Shown in pieces: positions 42,301-58,175 of a stretch of DNA of 58,175 nt. Under the pieces are notes generated by a model. It worked only from the letters and a program-made list of their open reading frames with translations. It ran no database searches and was not told the origin of the DNA. Positions within the stretch are counted from its first letter, which is position 1, and the number at the start of each line of letters is the position of its first letter. Source of the stretch: Obrimoposthia wandeli (taxonomy: Eukaryota); NCBI GenBank assembly GCA_977020255.1, contig CDROCS010004111.1, forward strand, positions 186,001 through 244,175, written 5' to 3'. A program made the translations under genes and the position numbers.

Positions 42301-45136
42301 TTTCAATTTATTTTTCTCAATAATTTGATGATATTTTGATAAACAAGAACTTATTTCGCCTAACTATTGTTTTTTACCACTTCATCCCAATATAACAATT
42401 TATTTCCTAAAAAATTACAGTTGTGTTTTAATAGTTCATACATTTTGTTTCTTTTAACGGCAATTTTATAGGTATGTTTAAAAAAACTTTCTGTTTACCA
42501 TCTTTCAAACCTTGGGAAATTAAGGGTACTATTTAAACGGGCGAAATAGACTCAAACTGACTTACAGTCTTTCAAAGTCCCCTAACGAGACAGAACAAGA
42601 GGTCGAAGCTAGTCTACTAAACGATAACCGTGTTTACCATAATCACCACTGAGTCATCTGAGCGATTCTTGTCTGCAGAGAACACAACGTATTCTGCAAT
42701 TGTTTCCGCTGCCATCTGGGCAAAATCACGGAAAATGGAATCGAGCGCTTCAACCCAGGTGGGAGGAAGTTGGAGGTTTGACGGCAGATTCCTCTCTGGG
42801 ATTTGCACTTTCGGATACGGTCTGTTTACACAGTGGATTATGCACCTTTTAATTGTTGGACTGTCTGCATCGGTCCCTCGTTCGCTAATTAGGATTCGAG
42901 CTGTTTGTCTGATAAGCTTGTTGCGCTTTTCTGTGTGAGTATTTTGTGTTTAATTTTTGACTGAAATTGACCGTTCATTGTTCTTATTCCGATTGAAACT
43001 TCTAAATCTATACCTGCTCATATACTTTTAAGACAAAAATCATTAAATTATATTTCATTTTATCAGGCACAATTTCAATTTATTTTTTCTTAAAATACGC
43101 ACTTCTTTCAATTGATTCAACACTTTAACATTTTTAACAGAAGGCACCTTTTTTCAGCTCTCGCCAACAAAGACTATACTGAGGGGTTGAAGACCCTTAT
43201 CAACGATGACCGTGAAACTGTGCCTTAATATACGAATCTCGTAGAATTGTTGACAGCTTTTAAAATTTACCAAATGGACAATTTTAGAAAACGGCGCAAC
43301 CAATTTTAATGATTGTTTATTTTATAAAAAAATATAAATTAGAACGTATGAGCAAAATCATAATTTATAACAAACATGCTGAATCAAATTAAGTACCTTA
43401 AAATCATTCTGATAAAATGAGCCTTATCTACCGCTAGGCACTATCAATTTTTTTATGTTTATGAAGAAATCTGAATACCCCCTACTTGATGCAACACATA
43501 TCATGACAATAAAATTCAACTATGCGTAACCAGTTGTTGAATTTCTAAAACCAAGTGGGTCTTTACTAACGACTGTACGACTTCGCTCATTTCAAAAATA
43601 ACAGGAATTTCATCCATATTTCCTATTTGTTCTAAATTGATTTATGTTTTCCGATTATTCACTTTTACTTCTCAGTCATCGAGAAGTTTCAATTCAAAGA
43701 TTGTTATTGGGCTACAATTCAGGGATTTTAATCTCAACTTTCGACAATCTCTTCGCTTTCTATTTAATAATTTTATTCAAACTTTGTAATCTCCTTTTTC
43801 TATTCTTAAATATATTTTTTCAATTCTAGTCAAAGCTTATTTCGATATATTCAGGTGCCTCTCTTTGGATTGAATTGTTGAAGAACTAATCTTGTCCTAC
43901 CATTATTTTCTGTTTAAAATATTTTTTATTGAGATTGTGTATGAATTTATGATTTTAATCATTTGAAATTATTTGTTGTTTTAAAATTTGATTTATTACT
44001 AATTATAAAATTTTAAAATGACCAAAAAATAATTATTAGAAATTAATTAGAAATATTGTGACAAGGTGCGCTTTATTTATCAATGAAGTGTTATATGAAT
44101 TAAATGATTTTTAACGGGTACGCGTTATCAATGTGATTTTAGGTTAAAAATGAAAAGTTAATTGAGGCAACTACTAATTTTCTGTGAACAGTTAATGGTA
44201 CATTTCTCATTGGAAAAAGAGAAATCTAAATTCGAAAGGACATTGATATTTTTGTGGACGATGTCAAAGTGTGTTTTCCTTGAGGAAAAGAGGGAAAACG
44301 AAACGGTAATCCAATGTATGTGGTAGGTTCAACTGTGCTAACATATATCTGACCCTTATTTAAAAATGATGACGTTTTTTGAAATTTGTAGTCATTTTAA
44401 ACAAATTAAATATTAGGAAATTTAATAATAAAATTCAATAAATATTGAGTAGTTATCATCGCAATAATATTTTTTCTTGATCATACAGTATAGGAAGTTT
44501 ATATTAAAACTAAAAATTGTCTAACTTCTTCGAACATTCTTATTTTACTGATCCCTGTGTAAAACCACTGTTAAGGTTGAGAATTAAGAAAATTAAATAT
44601 TTTAGTTGATTAAATACTAAAATAAAAATCCTTGAAAGCAAGGTCGAAAATTGAATTAAAATATTAATTTAAGTTTAGAAGTAAAATTAGTGAAATTTAG
44701 GGTAAATTAGGAGGACCACGAAGGTCGTGTATTATGCGAAAATGTATAAAAGTTAAATTAATTAACCCAAAAGGGACAATTTCAAAAACAAAACTAAAAC
44801 TTAATTAGAAGAAAAACGGTTAATTACAACCGTCGCTCAAGGATCCCCAAGGTAAGCACTTTTGCGTGCAGTAACTAAGATTGTTTTACAGCTGTCATTG
44901 ACTGACAGAATCCAGAATCGCTAGAAGAAATCTACCAGGAACCCCAGAACAGCTGTCAGTTGATTGGCAATCAGGTTCCTATTTAAGAAGAGCCAATTCA
45001 GAAGACAATCACAAATACGGAATCGCTCCAGAGTCGACTGGACGACAATATTGACTTCTAGGTAAGGAGTGTAAGAAGAAATAACAAATTTAAATTATTT
45101 AGGAAATCGATTTTGAATATCTGAACCTATAACCAG

Positions 45137-45494
45137 CCAGCGTATCCAAGAGTCAGCGTATCCAAGAGTCAGCGTATCCAAGAGTCAGCGTATTCAAGAG
45201 TCAGCGTATCCAAGAGTCAGCGTATCCAAGAGTCAGCGTATCAAGAGTCAGCGTATCCAGAGTCAGCGTATTCCAAGAGTCAGCGTATTCAAGAGCCAGC
45301 GTATTGAAGAGTCAGAGTAATCAAGAGTCAGCGTATCCAAGAGTCAGCGTATCCAAGAGTCAGCGTATCCAAGAGTCAGCGTATCCAAGAGTCAGCGTAT
45401 CCAAGAGTCAGCGTATCCAAGAGTCAGCGTATCCAAGAGTCAGCGTATTCAAGAGTCAGCGTATTCAAGAGTCAGCGTATTCAAGAGTCAGCGT
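45137..45494 (+). repeat. 16-bp tandem array (CCAAGAGTCAGCGTAT), ~22 copies, inside the LTR
   Basis: Directly visible; it generates the spurious repetitive ORF 45304-45582. Confidence 0.95.
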
Positions 45495-45587
45495 TCTTCG
45501 GATTCCGCAAATTACCTACGGATCCACATCGGACATCTCGCCGTACCGGAATCAGCGAGTAACTGGTAAGAACACAGACTAGGTTCA

Positions 45588-46024
45588 TTCATTGCCCCTA
45601 GTAGGCAATTAGGATATATTCATTACCCCTAGTTGGTAATTCTATATTTCCTTAATAATACACAAATTCATTGCCCCTAGCTGGTAATTAGGATCACTGC
45701 CTCTTTACCACAATCATTGCCCCTAGTTGGTAATTAGGATCGGACCTTTATTCATTGTCCCCAGCGACAATTAGGAAACTTACCAGACGTTTTTTCCCGT
45801 AAGATTCATTGTCCCTAGCTGGCAATTAGGTTCCTTCATTGCCCCTAGTTGGTAATTCGGATAAATATTCATTGTCCCTAGTAGAAAATTCGGTAAGACT
45901 CATTGTCCACTAGCTGACAATTCGGTTCGCACATTGTCCGTAGTTGACAATTAGGAGTAAGTTTTATTGTCATCTGGACAATTAGGATTTTAGGAGATCC
46001 CTTGTCTACAGTAGACAATTTGGG
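45588..46024 (+). repeat. ~12 spaced copies of an imperfect palindrome TTCATTGYC-(N7-8)-GRYAATTMGG inside the LTR
   Basis: Examples: ttcattgtccctagctggcaattagg, cattgtccactagctgacaattcgg, cattgtccgtagttgacaattagg. Spacers are of variable length. Confidence 0.85.
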
Positions 46025-46507
46025 TCGAACACACAGAGAGTAAGGAACAAAGAAATATTTGGTTAGAGATAAGAAGTAGGAGCGAAGAAATTTAAGAGAG
46101 TTGCGTTATAGATTAACCAACCTGAGTAAGAAGATTAAACCTAGGAAACTTAATCACCTGAACGTAAAATCGATACGTGGTTCATCCCCACTTCTTGTAG
46201 AGACTCACAGAAGTCCTTTAGGAATTTTATCATACTTTTTAGAAATACGTACATAAACGTATTGTGGTGTTAGTTACGTGAATTTTGAATAAACAATTTC
46301 CTACATTAGAACAAGTTGTTTTTACACCCTTCAGACTAAGAGACATCAAAGCAATACCTTCAGATAGTACAAGAGATTAGGCAACCATAACACTAAGTAG
46401 GCCACGACCAACTTTAAGACCTGCTTCTAATCGAACTCACGTTGGGGCCCTCCGCACACTAAGAGGCTCTATACCAAGTTTCGTATAGAAACCCCAACAT
46501 ATTAAAG

Positions 46508-46526
46508 TGGTGCCCCGAGTGAGGAT
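46508..46526 (+). promoter_or_regulatory. Primer binding site, probably elongator tRNA-Met
   Basis: TGGTGCCCCGAGTGAGGAT is complementary to a tRNA 3' end ...ATCCTCAC(T/A)CGGGGCA-CCA, which matches metazoan elongator tRNA-Met as I recall it. Confidence 0.75.
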
Positions 46527-46552
46527 AGCTCATCGGACACAGCGAATTCACG

Positions 46553-47405
46553 TAGAATAAGTTCAGATAAGTTTTGGAAAATTGAGAATAAGTTCAGGTG
46601 AATAGAATAAGTTCAGATAAGTTGCGGATAATTGAGAATAAGTTTCAGGTAAATAGAATAAGTACAGATATTAAGAATAAGTTTCAGATATTGAGAATAA
46701 GTACAGATATTAAGAATAAGTTTCAGATATTAAGAATAAGTTTCAGATATTAAGAATAAGTTTCAGATATTAAGAATAAGTTCAGATATTAAGAATAAGT
46801 TTCAGATAAATTGAGAATAAGTTTCAGATAAATTGAGAATAAGTTTCAGCAGAAGAATATAGACAATTGAGAATAAGTTTCAGAAGAAGATATAAGTAAA
46901 TTGAGTTAAGAATTTGATAAGTGTTAAGAAATCGGGTAGATTTGTTCCTCGAAGTTAAGAATTTGATAAGTGTTGAGAAATCGGGTAGATTTGTTCCTCG
47001 AAGTTAAGAATTTGATAAGTTTTTGAGAAATCGAGTAGATTTGTTCCTCGAAGTTAAGAATTTGATAAGTGTTAAGAAATCGGGTAGATTTGTTCCTCGA
47101 AGTTAAGAATTTGATAAGTGTTGAGAAATCGGGTAGATTTGTTCCTCGAAGTTAAGAATTCGATAAGTTTTTGAAAAGTCGAGTGGATTTGTTCCTCGAG
47201 TCAGTAAATTTTATAAGTGAGAATCGAGTGGATTGATACTCGAAGTAATTAATTGAATAAGTTAAGTCGGGAGACTCTGTCCTCGAACTAATTAAAAAGA
47301 TAAAATCGTAAGTGAATTTGATAAAGTGAGAATCGAGTGGATTGATACTCGAAGTAATTAATTGAATAGGTTAAGTCGGGAGACTCTGTCCTCGAACTAA
47401 TTAAA
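46553..47405 (+). repeat. 5' leader built of three tandem arrays (~20-bp, 49-bp and ~110-bp period)
   Basis: gaataagtttcagatatt units at 46553-46880; gaagttaagaatttgataagtgttaagaaatcgggtagatttgttcctc x~6 at 46903-47198; two copies of gtgagaatcgagtgg...cctcgaactaattaaa at 47217-47405. Confidence 0.9.
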
Positions 47406-47693
47406 GAGATAAAAAGTCGTAAAATAAGAATTGTGAAATAAGCTAAAAATAATAAGTGAATTGATATCGTAAACGAATACATAATTGATAAGACAACGGA
47501 TAATAGAAAAGGACCCGCGTATAATACTAGAAGACAAAGTCAGATCCCCAAGGAAGAGATAAATAATAATAAAGTTAACCGAATTGAACAGGTTCCCCAA
47601 ACAGATAACAAAGTAACAGAAAAGACTAGAGTCGAAGAAAACGTATCAGAAAGAGACGTTGATCAATCAGATGTTTCAACCGGCAGTTTTAAT

Positions 47694-49833
47694 TTGACTG
47701 AATTATTTGGTGACATAGACCAAGAAGAATTTGAAATTGCCAATCCAGTAGTGATTGAGGAAGTTCCATTGAATAATATTGCAGAAATAGTTGAAGACGA
47801 TATAGTTGCAGATATGGCTCAACCAGGAGCTCAAGCAGATATTAATGCAGGAAATAATGTAGGTGACATGAATGCCGAGCAGTTGGCACAAGCTTTAAAT
47901 GCGACGTTGAGACCCAATTTTTCAGGATCATTGCAGATTACAAAGTTTAAAGGAGATGAGGAAAGTATTTGTGACTTCCTCGCAGAATATTCGAGTTGTG
48001 CAGATGTTCAAGGATGGAACGATAAAGAAAAAATGTATCAGAGTACAGGCACATTTAACCGAATTAACACTTGAAGAGTGTAAAGATTTGACAGAAGCAG
48101 AACGTTTGGACTGGCGAGCGTTAGGTACTGCTTTTATTGGAAAATTGGTATTAGGAGATTTAGCCAAAGTAAAATAAGCGACTCATGAGAGAACGGAAAC
48201 AGAAACATGATGAAGGCGTGAATGAATACGCGTATGTTTTGAGAACCTTGGCCGCAAGAGCGTACCCAAGAAGAATAATGAGAAATCAGGACGGTAATCC
48301 TGTAGCTCCAGAAGCACAAGCAGCGGAAAATGACCGGAACCAAAATGAAATGGCAGAGGTCTTGTTAGATATATTTAGAGGAGGATTGAAAAAAGGATAT
48401 TAAAGTGTTATTAGCAGTATCGGATACAAATGATTTTGATAACGCCGTGCGAAAGGCGAGAGAAATTGAGAAAAATATAAAGAATAATGCAGCATTGGCA
48501 ATCTACGCAATGACTGCAGGTGACGACGATAAGACAAAGGTCTTCGTGAATAAAACAGAACCGAGTAATTTTCAGAATCGAAATTATGGACAAAATAAGT
48601 TTGAAAAAGTAGATGAATCCAGTAACGGAAACAGAGATAATTTCCGAAGTAGGAATCGAGATGATTCGAGAGGTAGAAATAATAGTGAGTCTTGGAACAG
48701 GAATCGAGATGATTCAAGAGGTAGAAATAATAATGATTCGTGGAATAGAAATAGAGATGATTCCAGGAATAGATTTAATAGAATAATTCAGGAAATCGCC
48801 AACCTTGGAGAGGAGACGATAGGAATTATAACGCAAACAGAGGAGAACAAGTGACTCTCGATTTGGAAATAATGCAGGAAATAGTGACGGAAGATTCAAT
48901 AATCGAGGAAGCGGTTTTGAATCGAATTTCCGAAGAAATGATTTTAGAGGACGCTATGATAATAGACAGAATAGTCGTCGAGTACAGTTCGAAGATGAAC
49001 AAAATAAAATAGATATTCGAGGGAGAATAATGTGTTACACATGTAAACAAATGGGTCACTATTCGAGAGATTGTACGAGAAGTAAAGAGTTCGGAGCTAA
49101 CAGATTTGGAAATAATTATAGAGGATATAATTCACCTCCGCCATGGAATAGAGGTGGTGGATATACTCCACAGCCATGGAGACTGAATAATCAGTATGCA
49201 GATAGACAGCAAGGAGCTGAGAGATACAATAATTACGTAGGACAGCAAGGAGCTGAGAGATATAATAATTCTGGTAGATATAATAATAATAATGTCGACA
49301 AGACAAATAGTCGAGAGAGTTCGCCGAAACCGAAAGGAAATTTTAGTTATGTAAGCGATGACAGTGATAGGAATCGCGAGACCGAGCTTCGACGCGAAAT
49401 AGATTTTGAAGATAGTGATAGTAAATTTGAACGAATGTTGGGAATAATTAAAGATTCACCACATACAAAGATGGCGAATTCATCTACGTTGTCGAAACAA
49501 GAGAGAAGTCTACATTCGAGAGGAGAGATGAATGATTTAATGAATAGAATATTAGAAGCGTATGAGACACCAATAGAGAAAACGTGTAACGCACAACCTA
49601 TGACTGATCATGTAGAAGCAGCAAGAAATGCTACGAGTATGGAAAATGTAAAAAAGATAATTAGTGAAGCTAAGGAAACGCTGAATCAACCGTTAGATGA
49701 AACAGTGAAGCTCCAGAAGTTTTGGCCAAATTGCAAACAATTAAAGTGCACCGATTGGAAGAAGTACGTGCAGAATTGGTTAAACATAGTCATGATAACT
49801 TGGGTTACAAAGAAGTACCCCGAGGACTACTGA
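47694..49833 (+). pseudogene. gag: gag (capsid, low-complexity R/N/D linker, CCHC zinc knuckle), frameshifted
   Basis: ITKFKGDEESICDFLAEY...GWNDKEK and RKQKHDEGVNEYAYVLRTLAARAY are Gypsy gag-like. Zinc knuckle CYTCKQMGHYSRDC at 49033-49074. About 6 frame disruptions. Confidence 0.85.
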
Positions 49834-49877
49834 GAGGTTATGGTCGTTATGTACAGAGATCAAACCAAAAAGGAACG

Positions 49878-50108
49878 ATGAAAATTTCACTTCGATTAAT
49901 TTCCGGACAGATAATACATGAAAAACTTAACGTGTATCAAACAATGAAAACGATTCGGAAAAAGTTAGCCGAGAAACTTGAAATTGATGGAATGAATATG
50001 TTGTTCCATTATAAAGGCAGATCACTAGATGATGAGGACGTACCAGTCGAGTTTGGATATCCGATAGGAAATGAATTAGAGGAAAAAATTGATGTCATCA
50101 CTGTAGGA
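49878..50108 (+). other. Ubiquitin/SUMO-like domain
   Basis: MKISLRLISGQIIHEKLNVYQTMKTIRKKLAEKLEIDGMNMLFHYKGRSLDDEDVPVEFGY aligns without gaps to ubiquitin [61 protein letters not shown]. Confidence 0.7.
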
Positions 50109-52841
50109 CGTCAAGAGTTAGTAGATAATGAAGGATTAACCGAGATATTGAATTCTGCGTTAGAAATGATAAAAACGCCTATAGAAATTTTAGACAGTTC
50201 AAGCGAAAGCGGAGATAATGATGTAGCTGAAGTTTGGAACAAGACATCCACACCAGAACCGTACGTAGCTGAATTACAAGACATGAATTTAGAAAATGAG
50301 TTGACAACTCCAGTGGTTGAGGTGCCACCAGAACCAGATATAATTCCAATCAGACAAGATGAAGTCACGGATACAGCCAACCAAGTGAGACAAAACGAAA
50401 CCGTAACACAACTAGTAGGAGAAGACGAAGTCTCCGAGATTGTAGATTTGGATTCACCAATTTGGCATGCCGCATACAAAGATAGACAAGCAGAGCAAAT
50501 GATGCGACAAAATGAAGAGATTGGCCATGAAGAAGGACCAAGTCAAGAGATACAGTATAATGGTGAAACGTATGATCCAGGAGAGAATCAAACTGAGTAT
50601 CAGTATTTTCGAAGAGGGCCTGGAAGACCTAGAAAAGGTGAAAGTATATTACGAAATGTTCTAACTGCACCACAAACTGATGAAGAAAGACATCTAAGTA
50701 TTGGACAGTTAGCGGCGTCATTAGAGCAGTATAGTGCAGAGAGGAATGAAGATATCAGAGGTGATATGAATTCGGAAACTCCAAGTAGTAAAGATATACT
50801 TACGGGAATTCTCAGGCAAGTGAAGCCGAAGTTGTTCAAAATGTACAGAACGGGAATTCTCAGGCAAGTGAAGCCGAAGTTGTTCAAAATGTACAGAGAT
50901 GAAACAACCGATATAACAGACAATTTGACTAAAGCAGTCAGATCACAGATGTCTGCAGTAAAGAGAATGACCGCGAATCATGTATACCATGCATCGATAG
51001 ATAGATTTTATGACGGTGAAGTTTTAGCGAGATTATGTGGAAACCAGACTACAAATAAAAAGTTAATTACAGCGATCACATATCTATGTTTCCAATTGAC
51101 GGAACGAACGAGCCAACCTCACGAAGTCAAACAAGGAATAAATGAAGCGATGTATTTGATCGAGAATGTATTACAGAGACGAATTGACGAAAATGGAGGT
51201 TGGGCAAAATTAAGTGACTACGCTAAAACCATTGTGGAAATTAATGAAGACGATGACGAACAATGTCATGAGAATCGTCAAAAGGAAAATAAACAATACC
51301 GTCCGAAAGAGAGAAACAATCAACCAAATATGTCCACAACAATGATGATGATGATGTTAGTAATGTTTATGGGAATGCAACAGGCATCAGGATTGATAGC
51401 ATATGACTGTAGCATACCAAAGATGGGACAAAAGTATTCACTGCTTGACAGCGAAGACTGTCCAGAATCACAACCGTCAAAACTAGAAGTTCAAGGTGTT
51501 GAAAACTACTTTGTGTATCAGGATGTTGATAAAGTACAAGTAGAAGTGAAAGAATGTTCAATCCATTCAAGTTATCACGAATTCTATTGTGGTCATAGAA
51601 GTTTTATGTCAGAAATCACACCTACCACACCGTACAAGGCACATAAGGTTTTGCCGAGAGATTGCGAAGATGCATTTCGAACGGGAACGATAGGAGGTAG
51701 ACAAAATTACAAACCTGAAGTACAAATTGGAGTGAGACGATACGAAACAGTCACGAGAGTCGGACAGCGATGGGCTGATGGATCTTGTGACGGAGAAACA
51801 AAAAACGTGCGTGGAACCAAAGTATCTGAGTTAGTAATGGATGTAACTTACAAAATCGAATTAAAAACATGGACCGCCAATTTTGATAAAAAGACACAAC
51901 TAATGATGAAGTATCCAGAATGTAAAATGACAGATGCATCTTGTTTTACAGGTGAATCCACAATTGTGTACAACATAAATCCGAAGCAATGCTCTTTAGT
52001 ATTTTTGAAAGAGATTAGCTTTAATAAAATAAAAGGATTCCTGTATAATAAAGATGGAGAGGGGTTCCTGTATAATAAAGCAGGAAAAGGATTGTTAAAT
52101 GAAACAAGACCAATCCCAATGACAAAAACACCTACACTGTTAATGGCAACATCAATAGAAGAAGGATTGATATTTATTAAAAAGAGAAACAAAGCGCGAT
52201 GCGGAATGACTGTTAGTACCACAAACTATCCAGGAATAGTTTTGTCCAAAACAATAGCATTGGCAGAAACCAAGCTAAAACCAAAAGATATGCAGCTACA
52301 CACGTATTTTAATAATAAAATTGATTTCTATTATCATAAAGGATTGATGCAAATGGAACAGTTATATCGGATGATGATTGAAAGAGATTGCCAGTTAAAC
52401 AAAGAGATCGTGAGAACAAAGTTAGCATTAGCTATTACGAATCCAGACATGGTAGCACCATTATTACCCTTGGATGAAGGAGTATTTGCTAAAACCATGG
52501 GAGAAGTATTGTATACTTACAAGTGTAATAAAGTAGAGGTACAGTTGAGAAAAACAAATCGATGTACGAGTGAATTGGCAGTAACGTATAATTTACAAGA
52601 ACTTTTTGTTGAACCAATCACGAGAATGTTACTTCCAAAAGACACCCCAACTAAAGAAATCAGCTGCTCTAATATAATGGCACCTGAATATCAAATGACG
52701 AATAATCTATGGATAACGTTACCTGATCGAAAGCCAACGAAAACCCCAGCGATGATAAGAATGACGAATCTTAAAGGTAAAATGAAATTCCAAGCGGTGG
52801 AAAATATGGAGAACGCAGGATTGTACAATGAAAAGATTTAA
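49878..52841 (+). CDS. Intact 987-aa ORF: ubiquitin-like domain - AT-hook - Bcl-2-like domain - signal peptide - chuvirus-type glycoprotein ectodomain
   Basis: The first in-frame ATG is at 49878 (the frame is open from 49722). No stop until 52839-52841. Confidence 0.85.
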   Translation: MKISLRLISGQIIHEKLNVYQTMKTIRKKLAEKLEIDGMNMLFHYKGRSLDDEDVPVEFGYPIGNELEEKIDVITVGRQELVDNEGLTEILNSALEMIKTPIEILDSSSESGDNDVAEVWNKTSTPEPYVAELQDMNLENELTTPVVEVPPEPDIIPIRQDEVTDTANQVRQNETVTQLVGEDEVSEIVDLDSPIWHAAYKDRQAEQMMRQNEEIGHEEGPSQEIQYNGETYDPGENQTEYQYFRRGPGRPRKGESILRNVLTAPQTDEERHLSIGQLAASLEQYSAERNEDIRGDMNSETPSSKDILTGILRQVKPKLFKMYRTGILRQVKPKLFKMYRDETTDITDNLTKAVRSQMSAVKRMTANHVYHASIDRFYDGEVLARLCGNQTTNKKLITAITYLCFQLTERTSQPHEVKQGINEAMYLIENVLQRRIDENGGWAKLSDYAKTIVEINEDDDEQCHENRQKENKQYRPKERNNQPNMSTTMMMMMLVMFMGMQQASGLIAYDCSIPKMGQKYSLLDSEDCPESQPSKLEVQGVENYFVYQDVDKVQVEVKECSIHSSYHEFYCGHRSFMSEITPTTPYKAHKVLPRDCEDAFRTGTIGGRQNYKPEVQIGVRRYETVTRVGQRWADGSCDGETKNVRGTKVSELVMDVTYKIELKTWTANFDKKTQLMMKYPECKMTDASCFTGESTIVYNINPKQCSLVFLKEISFNKIKGFLYNKDGEGFLYNKAGKGLLNETRPIPMTKTPTLLMATSIEEGLIFIKKRNKARCGMTVSTTNYPGIVLSKTIALAETKLKPKDMQLHTYFNNKIDFYYHKGLMQMEQLYRMMIERDCQLNKEIVRTKLALAITNPDMVAPLLPLDEGVFAKTMGEVLYTYKCNKVEVQLRKTNRCTSELAVTYNLQELFVEPITRMLLPKDTPTKEISCSNIMAPEYQMTNNLWITLPDRKPTKTPAMIRMTNLKGKMKFQAVENMENAGLYNEKI
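50610..50639 (+). other. AT-hook motif
   Basis: RRGPGRPRKG (GRP core flanked by basic residues). Confidence 0.7.
50790..51230 (+). other. Bcl-2-like helical domain
   Basis: BH2-like LQRRIDENGGWAKLSDY (NGGW at 51192-51203; cf. Bcl-xL WIQENGGWDTFVELY, Bax WIQDQGGWDGLLSYF). BH1-position helix NKKLITAITYLCFQL at ~51054-51098. Confidence 0.6.
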
Positions 52842-53238
52842 AGCGGCGTGGAACGAAATAATGTTTCCAGTAAGAAGAGCCAGAGTACTTACGGAGATGG
52901 TACATCGAGCATTACCGCCAGGAGCGAGATATGCAATTTCGATATGTTATTATCGCCAAGTCATTTCAAGGAAGCAGCATCAGACACTTAGAAAGATGTG
53001 GAAATTCCTTGTCTTAGGACAACTATTTTCGGGTATCATAGGTATTTATGTTATAATTAAATTTGTGCAGGTAATTATAGCCCAGGTGTTGTCTACGTAT
53101 AGTTTATACAGGATAACCGGAATCACCTGGCAACTTATAATTGGATGTTTTCCATTTTTAGCAAAATATCTAATGCACCATCATCACGAGAACGAGTTGC
53201 GAGCCCTCAAGAAGAACAACACCAAACGAGAACCATGA
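51330..53238 (+). other. env: Chuvirus-type envelope glycoprotein; TM tail frameshifted after ~52835
   Basis: Signal peptide MSTTMMMMMLVMFMGMQQASG, then LIAYDC...SLLDSEDC, YCGHRS, LHTYFNNK, QLY...DC.L, NPD, GEVLYTYKC..V.V..R.T..C..EL.V and F.EP.TR. The hydrophobic WKFLVLGQLFSGIIGIYVIIKF segment is in the 52828-53238 frame. Confidence 0.8.
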
Positions 53239-53537
53239 TGAGAGAACCAAGAAACTATCGAGACGACAACGACGACGATAATGATAGTCCAGAAGTATAT
53301 GCAAAGATACCAGGAAAACCAAAGATTCCGTTACCAGACAAGGAAGAAGTGGCGTTAAACCTATACCCAATGAAGGAATTGAAGGAAGAAAAGGAAAAGT
53401 TCAAGAGAGGCATCTTAATGATAAGATGGCCTAAAGTGAGCTACAGTGAAATTCCACAAGCAGAGGAAAAAGACAAAAAAGATAATTCCAGAAGAATTCT
53501 GAAATCTAGGATATCAAATGAGAATCCAAATGCTCCA

Positions 53538-53822
53538 CCACAAGTAGCAGTAACATTGAACGGAAGAGAATATCTTGCCGAAGTTGATACCGGATCTGCA
53601 GTATCAGTACTGAGTAAAGAAATCTTGTCATCAAAGAATTAAGAGAAGTATGTCCTAGAAAACAGACATTTGTTAACGTGAATGGTACAGATGTAGTGTC
53701 GGAAGGAACACTGAAATGTTCATTGAATATCGATGGAAGAGTATTACAGTTAAATGCTAGAATATTCACAGATTGCGGTAGTCCAGTCATGATTGGGATG
53801 GACGTAATACAGTGTTTGAAGG
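53538..53822 (+). pseudogene. pro: Retroviral-type aspartic protease, copy 1 (frameshift ~53640)
   Basis: VTLNGREYLAEVDTGSAVSVL (DTG at 53586-53594); after the shift ...VNVNGTDVVSEG...SPVMIGMDVI. Confidence 0.85.
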
Positions 53823-54066
53823 AATAATTATACTACCAAACAACAAGAGTTATAAGAATGATAGTTCAGTGAGAGAGATAAAAATGTTGAGAGGACCTAT
53901 AGTCGAAAAGGAAAAAGGCACTACGTTCCGTATGGGAAGTTCGTACCCAGACAGAAAACAGGAAGCGCTAGCAAAGTCGATACTTCACTACAAAAATGTA
54001 AATTTCGGACCACAAGATACGACGAGGAGAAAAATAACATATGTAAATCTGTCAGAAAGGGATCCC

Positions 54067-55099
54067 ATGAGATTCGAGAGAAAGAGGCGAAATATATTAG
54101 AACAGTACTATTCAAAAGGAATGGCACGTAAAATGGCAAGATCAGGTTTAGAAATGCTAAACGCGACAAAGTAGTTATGGTCAGGAGATAGTAGTACGAT
54201 GCGTATGTGGTGTAGAGTAAAGTTTAGAGAATGGGAACAGAATGAAAACCCAATGAGACGTCATAAAAGAGATGCACCAAATTGTCCATTTCTTTTGAAA
54301 CTGAAAAACGTCAAACGTACCAGAAGTCAAACAGGAAAAGCACCCGATTTCGATTACAGTGACGGGGGTAATTCCGAAAGGAGAATCAGCTCTAATAACA
54401 GGTAGAGTAATAACGAATAGTCAGAATTGAAGATATATTCGAAGTTATGCGAAGTGAAACGAATGTGACGAACAGTATCGAGAAGTAACTTTCGAAGATC
54501 CAAGACTTAAAAAATTGGCAAAAAGGGACTTTTGCTATAAAAAGGATGGTAAAGACGTAATTAAATGCCACAAGTGTAAAAAAGAACGAATTATCGACAG
54601 ATATACTCTTGAGCTACCTAAGAAAATTTTACATCATGAATTTTGCGAATTTTGTACTTGTAAAAACAAAATAAAGCAAAAAAGAACAGAAAACCGAATG
54701 TATAATCGAATACCAAATCACACGGAAAGAGATTTTGGCTCAACAAGACACACCGGTAGTGTCATTCGTGAAAGGTTATATCCAAAAGAAGCAGAAAGAA
54801 TCAGAGAATTGGTAGAATTAAAAATAAAAACTACGCGAAACGGATACGGATCGATTTTGAATTACTGCGAGATAAAGATGACAGTACAATTGAAACAAAA
54901 GAAAAGTACATAAATGAACTAGAATACGTACTAGAAGATCCGGAATGCGCAGTTTGCATGGTTAACAAAATAGAAGTTGCCTTTCTACCATGCGGACATG
55001 TAAGAACATGTCGGAGATGTGCGAATGAAATGGTATCATGTCCGATTTGTCGAAAGAATAATAGATCGACAAGTGAGAAACATTAGATTTCACTATCCA
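54067..55099 (+). pseudogene. iap: IAP module BIR1 - BIR2(degenerate) - UBA-like - RING embedded in the pol polyprotein
   Basis: BIR1 (54067-54294) gives C-V-W-C-x16-H-x6-CPFL after repairing a frameshift at ~54205. BIR2-like LAKRDFCY...DVIKCHKC at ~54515-54650. UBA-like LVELKIKTTRNGYGSI. Complete IAP-type RING CAVCMVNKIEVAFLPCGHVRTCRRCANEMVSCPICR (54946-55053), missed by the ORF track. Confidence 0.92.
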
Positions 55100-55180
55100 A
55101 ACACAGGAAGTGGACTGACAGAGTGTAATAATTCGATAAATACAATATACCATATGGGAAACATAAATGGAGCACAGCGA

Positions 55181-55473
55181 CCAGCAGCTATCATTAGAGT
55201 AAATAATTTAAGAGTAAAAAAGCCTTAATTGATACAGGTGCTGTAGCTTCGATAGTAAGTGAAGACTGTTTGACAGAGGAACAGAAACGAACAATGGCAG
55301 AACCAGATGAATTCTTGGTATCGGTCAATGGAGACCCTGTAAAAGTGACAGGAATATTACCATGTACATTTATAATTGGACGTAATACGATCACTATACC
55401 AGTTAGAATCATGAAAGAATGTCCTGAACCTACAATTTTAGGAATGGATGTATTATCACAACTCAAGGGATAA
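55181..55473 (+). pseudogene. pro: Retroviral-type aspartic protease, copy 2 (frameshift ~55220)
   Basis: PAAIIRVNNLRV.ALIDTGAVASIV (DTG at 55231-55239)...VSVNGDPVKVTG...PTILGMDVL. Confidence 0.9.
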
Positions 55474-55959
55474 GTATTGATTTACAAGATCAAGATTGAA
55501 GGATAGCACATCAAACAGACAAATAAACCAAATTGATGTAATTATAGAGAATCCTATAAAAATCGGTAAAAGATCACAATTTCTCATTCAAGGCCACACG
55601 TTATCAGAAGATAAAGGACCAGTTGTGTTCGAACCATCACGAGATTTCATAGAGAAATACGAATTACCAGTTTGTGAGTACATATGCCTGATCGAAAATC
55701 ATAAAATACCAGTTAGACTGATGAATACAACCAACAATGACATTCTATTATACAGAGGAATGAGGTTGGGAAAGATAGCACAGATGGAGAATTCCACTGT
55801 ATGCGCTATGAAACTCGATAAAGATACGAATGATTACGAAGAAATAGTAATCCAACCAGAAAAAAACAATTACTCGATCTAATACATAAATTTCCAAAAG
55901 TAATTGCAAAATCCATATGACATAGGAGAAACACTGTCATAAAACATACAATACCACTG

Positions 55960-56830
55960 ACAGAAGACAAAGTAGTCAGAAGAAGACCATATCAGTACCA
56001 TTACAATTACAAGATGAAGTAAAAAGTCAGATAGAAGATATGTCTAAAACAGGAGTAATTAGACCGAGTTTTCGCCATTTTCAGCACCTGTGGTGTTGGT
56101 AAAAAAGAAGGATGGGAAAATGAGATTCTGTATAGATTTCCAGAGAACTAGACAGATCACAAGAAAAGATGTGTATCCATTACCTAGAATCGAAGAGATG
56201 CTCGATAAATTGGGTAATTCAGATTATTTACAACATTAGATTTGCAGAGTGGATACTGGCAAATCGAGATAGAAGGAAGAGGATAAACACAAGACAGCCT
56301 TTTCCTTCGGAGATGGATTATACGACTGCGAAAAGATGCCATTCGGACTGACAGGAGCTCCAGCAACATTTCAGCGTTGCATGAATTTTGTACTCGCATC
56401 GTGTGCAAACACGATGGTTTATATCGATGACATAATAATATTTTCGAAAACGTTCGAAGAACATTTAAAAATCTCGAAGTTGTATTTAAAAAGGCTGGAA
56501 AAACGCTAAATTAAAGTTAAACCTACAAAATGCGTATGGGCTAAAGAGCGAGTAACATTTTTAGGACATATAGTATCGAAGAGGCATTCGACCTGATCCA
56601 GCAAAGATCGAAAGTAAAAGCGCATTTAGCACCAAAGACTGTTAAGGAGATACAGAGTTTTTTAGGTCTTGCAGAATTATATAGACGATTTGTTGAACAT
56701 TTTTCAGATATAGCAACACCATTGAGAAAGTTGACGAGAAAAGATGAGAAGTTCATATGGGGAGAAGAAGCCCAACAAGCGTTCGAGCATTTAAAAGAAA
56801 GACTGATAAAAGCACCAATATTGAACCCAG
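55960..56830 (+). pseudogene. pol: Reverse transcriptase, frameshifted
   Basis: SPFSAPVVLVKKKDGKMRFCIDF, YPLPRIEE, LDLQSGYWQI, MPFGLTGAPATFQR, YIDD (56420-56431), FLGHIV, FLGLAELYRRFV. Confidence 0.95.
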
Positions 56831-56844
56831 ATATAAACAACAAT

Positions 56845-57200
56845 TCATACTCATGACAGATGCAAGTAACTATGTGAACAGTATTGGGACAAGAGGATGA
56901 CGAAGAAGAACACATTGCGTATGCGAGTAGAGGATTAAACAGGCCGAAAGAGGATACTCTGTTATCGAAAAGGAATGTCTGGCAAGATGTATTATGTGAA
57001 CAGTACAAACACTATTTGCTAGGACAAAAAGTATTCCTGTATACAGATCACAAACCACTACGAGTTCTTGTATAAACATAGAGATGAGATGAGTAGATTA
57101 AACAGATGGTTTCTAAAATTGGCCGAATTCGATCTAGAAATCCGTTATAGAAGAACCGGAAAGTCGAACGGCAACGCAGATTGTTTATCGAGATTGACAA
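56845..57200 (+). pseudogene. RNase H (Ty3-type), frameshifted
   Basis: MTDAS, IAYASRGL, YLLGQKVFLYTDHKPL, RW...LAEFD..I.Y...GKSNGNADCLSR. Confidence 0.92.
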
Positions 57201-57489
57201 ATGTAGACGAGAAAGGAAACATAATTCCAGAAGAAGATGAAACCAATGACCAAAAAAGGAGAAGCAAATCTACTGACGATTTTGTTAAAGACGGGTAAAA
57301 TAGACAAAGAGATCATCAAAGAACAGAAGAAGATGAAGAACTGAGTCTAATCAAAAAATTGTTGGTGAAAAGGAGATCTAAACGATGAAATGACGAAGAA
57401 ATCTCGATAAAAGAGGCATCTGTATATTGTCAATAATGTCGAGAAGATAGTAGTAGTAATTCCAGTCATTGAAAACAGCAGTGATGATC

Positions 57490-58175
57490 CAGTATCACGA
57501 CGGAACACTAGGAGGACATCGTCAGGGCGAAAGACAATAGCCAGAATCAAAGAGAAGTACCGTGGGATGGTATGGAAGACGACATAAAACAATGGTGTAA
57601 ACAATGTAAAGTATGTTTAACCAGAAAAGACACCGGAACTCGTACTAAAGTTCCGTTGAAACCAATACCAGTTCCTTTGGCACCAATGGAATTCACAGCG
57701 ATGGATATATTGGGACCATTAGAGAATCAAGTAAAGAGCAAGTATGTCGCGTAGTATTTACGGATTACATGACGAGATGGGTAGAAGCATATCCCATGCA
57801 GAACCAAGCTGAAACAATAGCGCAAATCTTAGTGGAAGATAATATTTCGATGCAGGTGCCTAGAAAATTGTTAACGGATCAAGGTAAGAACTTCACTGGA
57901 GAAGTCATAAAAGCAGTATCGAAGATATTCGGAATCATGAAGTTACAAACTTCACCATATCACCCACAGACAGATGGTCTGGTGGAAAGGTTTAATAAAA
58001 CTTTATGTATGATGGTACAATCCTATTGCTCATACAAGCAAGAGGATTGGGATAAATGACCTTCATGTTTATATGCTTACAGGAATTCAGTTCGAGAGGC
58101 GACAGGTCACACACCATTCTATCTGATGTATCTCGGGCAGAACAATATGCCGATGGACAGCAATGCCGTGGCTTA
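57490..58175 (+). pseudogene. int: Integrase (HHCC + rve core), truncated by the window end
   Basis: HDGTLGGH...CKQC; MDILGPL; DYMTRWVEAYP; LTDQGKNF; SPYHPQTDGLVERFNKTL. Confidence 0.95.

Follow-up and report, generated by a model that had tools for sequence, protein, structure and literature searches.

A Burro-type element in the window

The window, by which we mean the whole 58,175-nucleotide stretch of DNA that was analyzed, turns purine-rich from position 44568, and from there to its end (44568-58175) it holds the 5′ portion of a Ty3/Gypsy element of Burro type, ~23.5 kb long; all features given below lie on the forward (+) strand. The element begins with a 5′ LTR (44568..46499) that has TG...CA termini and internal tandem repeats, whose two ends agree with those of either LTR in a complete natural copy elsewhere in the genome, followed by a primer-binding site complementary to the 3′ end of tRNA-Met(CAT) (46508..46526). 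The pattern of this site had 53 matches in the source genome and none in the reversed control, and at one locus carrying the pattern seven of seven genes were tRNA-Met. Downstream lie a Gag region in broken frames (47460..49833) with a CCHC knuckle (PF00098, E 2.4e-6, ~49033-49077); a weak ubiquitin/SUMO-like domain (49890..50039; PF00240, E 0.003); a weak BCL2-like segment (51015..51203; PF00452, E 0.036); an Env of the mononegavirus/chuvirus fusion glycoprotein type (Monjiviricetes-type; 51390..53210; PF24664, E 1.6e-64 and 7.2e-17); aspartic protease 1 (PR1; 53540..53835, DTG at ~53586), one of two protease stretches found in open copies; a module resembling cellular inhibitors of apoptosis (IAP); aspartic protease 2 (PR2; 55170..55480, DTG at ~55231, identified by Pfam); and RT, RNase H and integrase, again in broken frames (56099..58175; PF00078, PF17917/9, PF17921, and PF00665) and cut off where the contig ends at the end of the window. 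The order PR-RT-RH-IN, the TG...CA LTRs and the tRNA-Met primer-binding site are those of an LTR element of the Gypsy type. The ubiquitin-like and BCL2-like matches are both below cut-off and stand before Env in the order known from Burro; PDB and Atlas searches lent no support to the BCL2-like segment, which could be a second anti-apoptotic cargo.

A full natural copy on another contig (C1904) measures 23,475 bp and is flanked by a 4-bp target duplication. Its LTRs, with TG...CA termini, are separated by a single substitution over 2,075 nt, from which it follows that the family moved recently. A DNA search returned at least 40 matches at 95-100% identity among 4,351 first-look candidates. The LTR and 5′ leader of the window copy (44568-47420) contain several tandem arrays with units of 16, ~20, and ~49 nt, and the interior of its LTR is unlike that of the full copy, though the ends match. 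On C2252 and C2837, tRNA-Met genes repeat in tandem every ~284 bp, and these arrays match the element's primer-binding site. Beyond the part covered by the window, the 3′ part of the polyprotein has two dual-specificity phosphatase (DSPc) domains after the integrase (L034:7396-9999).

BIR-carrying giant Gypsy elements have been published, and the comparison that the earlier note called for could be made with them. In Burro, an ORF1 of ~5,000 aa holds BIR, BCL2-like, and ubiquitin-like domains and an in-frame Env (PMC6431247). The element described here resembles planarian Burro/GYPSM1 in its giant ORF1, CCHC Gag, mononegavirus-type Env, BIR, PR-RT-RH-IN order, and thousands of copies (PMC6431247), with below-cut-off matches to the ubiquitin-like and BCL2-like domains, but it is shorter (~23.5 kb versus >30 kb) and has one Pfam CCHC knuckle; unlike Burro/GYPSM1 as described in the section 7 text of PMC6431247, it also has two DSPc domains, two proteases flanking the IAP, and a UBA. 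Pfam gave no match to MATH or ankyrin in nine frame pieces of one copy (in the element of D. tigrina, MATH also occurs outside ORF1; PMC6431247), and neither Pfam nor PDB sequence search matched a dUTPase-like domain after PR. The absence of a MATH or ankyrin match and the length of 23,475 bp versus >30 kb indicate that this element is not Burro1 itself, and its Burro-type assignment is one of described architecture. Architecture and AT-rich DNA indicate that the host is probably a planarian.

The copy in the window is damaged. Its module carries about 9-12 frameshifting indels (12 when counted against the reference copy L010, in which the frame is itself shifted over a short local stretch), and the first cysteine of BIR1 lies in a different frame from the other ligands; as assembled, the copy would not yield the module protein. 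Across 4.1 kb it has 39 frameshifting indels, compared with a median of 7 among 29 copies. Assembly error is suggested by the climb of indels toward the contig end, from 0-9 to 17-25 per kb, while substitutions hold steady at 11-30, and by the location of 180 of 246 single-base indels of other copies in homopolymer runs (background 24%); against it, only 13 of 30 single-base indels in the window copy fall in such runs. In other copies in the genome, a single frame runs through Env-PR1-BIR1-BIR2-UBA-RING-PR2-RT, so that Env shares the frame of PR1 and the module, with open frames of 4,722 and 4,985 aa across the module and a frame of 5,301 aa, containing one stop, that spans Env. The single giant ORF1 is thus pieced together from the frames of several copies rather than annotated end to end in one, and among the 30 loci chosen by their PR2, 9 can be read from BIR1 to PR2 without a break.

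The IAP module and its flanking proteases

The earlier note had described a full BIR-BIR-UBA-RING protein within Pol, starting at 54067. The module is in frame with its surroundings, but the unit that contains it is a single Gag-Env-Pol polyprotein in which it sits between two proteases, and it starts ~90 nt earlier, at about 53977, with an N-terminal extension (53977..54066) that is conserved in this IAP clade and aligned among the Gypsy, Polinton, and host sequences and three database proteins. The word "full" likewise holds for a canonical BIR1 and RING and not for the frameshifted window copy, the degenerate BIR2, or the UBA. BIR1 (54067..54294), split over frames in the window copy, was matched in the window's own frames by Pfam (PF00653, E 2.4e-7, ~54121-54294), has the canonical zinc-ligand spacing that the note described and retains its ligands C-X2-C-X16-H-X6-C in 50 of 50 loci, and its model matches BIR folds at Z 9-12.5. 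BIR2 (54476..54655) has the spacing C-X2-C-X18-H-X3-C and had no separate Pfam match above cut-off in the window, and corresponds to a second PF00653 stretch in open copies; its conserved Arg and Gly and three Cys line up with those of canonical BIRs, its model has high confidence (pLDDT 80-96), and its odd spacing is shared with the host gene, Polinton A, P0002, P0003, and P0010. The complete IAP-type C3HC4 RING claimed from the letters is also present (PF13920, E 5.4e-12, ~54937-55065): it is followed by a clade-specific tail (54937..55096 in all), lies in a 104-aa stop-to-stop frame in the window copy (54772-55086), matches cIAP RINGs in structure, and retains its eight ligands in 49-50 of 50 aligned loci. 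In five of five natural copies, Pfam placed a BIR match with two stretches and a RING in one frame.

The segment between BIR2 and RING (54699..54876), called UBA-like in the note, was identified by a custom profile and a structure match, and its sequence indicates that it is a true homolog of the UBAs of BIRC2/3 and XIAP, although PF21290 detects no UBA in the source genome. The profile of this segment matches the UBA position of canonical IAPs among 146 proteins with a best E of 5.6e-8 (4.1 for the reversed control), and 6 of 12 scanned proteins are labelled with Pfam UBA_BIRC2-3 on the stretches it matched. The UBA model aligns with the XIAP UBA (2kna) over 53 residues at Z 5.2 and rmsd 1.9, a fold match that is partly circular given that the model's alignment contained canonical UBAs. 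The MGF-type loop, which is ubiquitin-binding, is absent from the aligned segment.

As a whole, the module is collinear with cIAP1 (3t6p) and, like cIAP1/2, XIAP, and DIAP1, has the order BIR...UBA...RING and the BIR, UBA, and RING folds; unlike cellular IAPs, it has a degenerate BIR2 and an internal RING, without an MGF-type loop or a CARD. The fold model was built from a 62-row alignment (pLDDT 75); a single-sequence model (pLDDT 31) was discarded. When the peptide-binding groove of BIR1 is compared with that of cIAP1 BIR3, the Trp and one acidic residue are kept and two other positions hold Arg and Asp, changes that make peptide-groove binding doubtful. The module has no introns, and its composition matches that of the element, with a purine fraction of 0.63 against 0.60 in flanking element DNA, both as the note had stated; Polinton IAPs have 0.53-0.55.

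PR1 and PR2 are 29% identical, and their catalytic Asp is retained in 48 of 50 and 50 of 50 loci, respectively. Cleavage sites of Ty1 are reported to have Val/Ile at P2 and P2′ and hydrophilic residues at P1/P1′ in the accessible text of PMC6952103. Candidate sites of the form Val/Ile-x↓x-Val/Ile flank the module, and similar motifs occur ~30 residues before the catalytic Asp in the proteases of several relatives; the motif is common, with 20 matches in 1,397 aa. A cut at the candidate motif would leave a 30-residue tail after the RING, and a cut at Tyr-Pro one of 15; Tyr-Pro was rejected as a certain cleavage site, one copy having Ser there. Stand-alone members of the clade have 13-29 residues after the last RING cysteine (16 in the host gene, 18 in the Polintons), and 102 of 122 other IAP-like matches end 13 residues past it (143 rows, 21 without a pattern match), so either candidate C-terminal cut would be compatible with the tails of stand-alone members. 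Proteolytic release, which the note thought probably necessary for activity of an internal RING, is plausible given two flanking proteases with intact Asp, but because stand-alone relatives tolerate longer tails an exact C-terminus appears less needed, and release itself may matter less.

Conservation across copies and relatives in the genome

Presence of the module in other copies and signs of a later retrocopy insertion, the two checks proposed in the note, both speak for a long-standing part of the element. Of the loci selected by PR2 and the DNA that follows it (30 of 40 listed matches), 29 of 30 carry at least 95% of the module, and BIR1 and BIR2 are present in 29 of 30 loci picked on Env, the exception having a long internal deletion that reaches RT. 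Among 20 older-copy loci, four of which come from one tandem array, 15 retain module remnants and five end earlier; none shows a clean PR1-PR2 join. Neither poly-A nor a separate duplication was found flanking the module.

To describe selection we compared shared variants, i.e., those in two or more copies, with singletons, leaving out the window copy together with four loci that aligned poorly. Across 28 copies, shared variants in the module comprise 26 synonymous and 13 non-synonymous changes (omega 0.13-0.18), and singletons 29 synonymous, 49 non-synonymous, and 4 stops (omega 0.46-0.66; Fisher P 1.7e-3). With 45 copies, 17 of which were picked by protein score, a choice favoring intact modules, the omega of shared variants is 0.15-0.21 (P 3.6e-6), and singletons range overall from 0.46 to 0.72. 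UBA and RING (omega 0.02-0.08) approach RT in constraint, the loosest part is BIR1 (0.23-0.37 across 45 copies, not significant by Fisher's test), and PR2 has 12 synonymous and no non-synonymous shared variants in the same 45 copies. These patterns of substitution indicate that the module is under purifying selection, and together with its near-universal presence they argue that it is not a late retrocopy.

A BIR family search of the source genome gave 12,110 first-look candidates, and 28 of 30 fetched loci belong to two repeat families that carry the IAP as a stand-alone ORF, with stop-to-stop frames of 341 and 301 aa; the other two resemble what we take to be host survivin- and BIRC6-type genes. 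A word-indexed protein search with the survivin-like ORF found no match. Gene content identifies both repeat families as Polinton-type elements carrying the same derived IAP clade as a free-standing gene. Family B is ~15 kb long and has TIRs, rve+chromo, Pox_A32, a DJR-like capsid (E 0.0097), and a polymerase (PF03175, E 1.5e-13 in one copy, 94% identical to the long ORF of another). Family A is ~14 kb long with ~4-kb TIRs, an ATPase, and an integrase, and no polymerase ORF was found in three copies. In family A, the IAP ORF and the greater part of a DSPc-like gene lie within each TIR, and every element therefore has two copies of the IAP; the family was seen on C609, C777, and C873, one copy being inserted in a family B Polinton. 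The first Gypsy DSPc domain retains the HC-X5-R motif and the Polinton A DSPc-like protein does not, and the two are 30% identical.

A host locus reached through a RING search has six GT-AG-bounded coding exons in compatible phases, a model predicted from DNA alone in which two donor sites are weak. The exons rebuild the architecture of the module, including the odd BIR2 and the tail, and the gene is single copy as judged on the exon tested. Word-indexed protein searches found no relative among longer proteins and only P0010 elsewhere, a metagenome scan with P0003 gave no match, and viral contigs yielded three loci, of which the two inspected are canonical IAPs of large DNA viruses.

Function and origin of the cargo

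We consider it likely that the module is a host-type IAP, intronless and in frame between two proteases, that is maintained by selection, is predicted to be cut free, and dampens apoptosis. A host IAP would have been captured via an mRNA intermediate, as the loss of introns suggests, and the proteases would cut after PR1 (~53875) and before PR2 (~55142) at hydrophobic-x↓x-hydrophobic sites, or at Tyr-Pro (~55096), releasing a free BIR-BIR-UBA-RING protein of ~420 residues. Its main output would be ubiquitin ligase activity that depends on the RING and is directed at caspases or other death proteins; with a degenerate BIR2 and UBA loop and a strongly conserved RING, this appears the likeliest activity. 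The element would benefit if host cells stay alive while particles are produced and integration takes place. Protection from apoptosis is likely by analogy with known IAPs and with the B-IAP of Burro1 (BIR+RING), which the accessible text of PMC13465017, citing Dev Cell 2026 (doi 10.1016/j.devcel.2026.03.001), reports to protect stem cells from caspase-mediated apoptosis.

The module might instead serve the element's own cycle, through ubiquitin-dependent turnover of the polyprotein, assembly and budding, or damping of innate signalling, and would then not be aimed mainly at caspases and could act while tethered to a protease fragment. Such a role would fit the strong constraint on UBA and RING and the weak constraint on BIR1, the degenerate BIR groove and BIR2, and the company of a ubiquitin-like and two DSPc domains in the polyprotein, but we judge it fairly unlikely, since the Burro1 B-IAP is reported to be anti-apoptotic and Polintons, whose replication is wholly different, retain a free ORF of this clade, as suits a role directed at the host. 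A neutral passenger module, or a recently inserted retrocopy, within an element in decay seems highly improbable: the many frameshifts of the window copy would suit it, yet purifying selection largely refutes it, and near-universal presence without poly-A or flanking duplication, a full copy with nearly identical LTRs, and a host identity of only 26-27% also stand against it.

The host, Gypsy, and Polinton sequences and four database proteins form one clade (100/100) relative to 10 canonical IAPs, and a second tree, set against 51 canonical IAPs, joins the rows of mobile elements and database proteins at SH-aLRT 100; both trees were flagged for long branches and skewed composition. The Gypsy IAP is 33-38% identical to the Polinton IAPs and 26-27% identical to the host gene, and the latter value implies an old capture. 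Whether a single host capture was followed by passage from Polinton to retroelement, or the reverse, or whether captures were separate, is close to evenly balanced, with the former slightly the less probable. Transfer is favored by this greater proximity to Polintons, by motifs common to Gypsy and Polinton upstream of the RING and within the tail, by Polinton copies without introns, and by the habit of both classes of inserting beside and into each other. A Gypsy+Polinton(+P0007) grouping has support of 87/92, and the Gypsy+host+P0002 topology is rejected (p-AU 0.034); against this, removal of P0007 and five outgroups lowers the support to 65/59, the test leaves Polinton+host standing (p-AU 0.33) and Gypsy+host at the border (0.054), the branch to the host gene is long, and the DSPc domains of the two classes share only 30% identity. 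Within the clade, the sequences thus favor Gypsy+Polinton, with no firm rejection of the alternatives.

Burro-like polyproteins from other samples (P0014, P0035, and P0102) carry no IAP; their aspartic proteases stand in tandem, two to four in number with one downstream of the integrase, and zinc-finger-like or coiled-coil material lies between the proteases. Since relatives without an IAP also have tandem proteases, protease duplication is probably older than the capture and may have offered a slot in which duplicated self-cleaving proteases would free any in-frame insert as a protein. We tentatively propose, as a possibility somewhat short of even, that a single captured host IAP passed between the giant retroelement and Polintons and occupies a protease-flanked cargo slot that relatives fill with zinc fingers or coiled coils.

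Adintoviruses and other Polinton-type elements with IAP and Bcl2 homologs are known (PMC8502044, in its accessible text, where neither planarians nor an IAP clade common with a retroelement is mentioned), and the accessible portions of PMC8532177, PMC11410931, and PMC13269885 add nothing further on IAP. Our literature search, which covered listings and partial texts of papers other than Dev Cell 2026, found no report of an IAP common to Burro and Polintons. The IAP of Burro elements is already published; the protease sandwich, the UBA, selection, the candidate donor gene, and sharing with Polintons are added here relative to the texts that this search covered. These results extend the reported anti-apoptotic cargo of Burro1 to another young, high-copy family and provide evidence from sequence for its maintenance by selection on the element, and the candidate donor gene and free-standing Polinton versions provide natural comparators for the mature protein. 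With >12,000 BIR candidates at first look, IAPs of mobile elements could far outnumber those of the host itself, and if passage between retroelement and Polintons is true, it would be a traceable exchange of a gene between RNA- and DNA-based mobile elements.

Two further loci in this genome carry related sequences. No BIR exons were found in the 30 kb surrounding one copy of another IAP-like RING exon, of which three spaced copies with a 14-residue tail lie on C4699 (L140). A ~7.15-kb tandem repeat at C3084:1-20000 has a Polinton-B-like BIR fragment in each unit.
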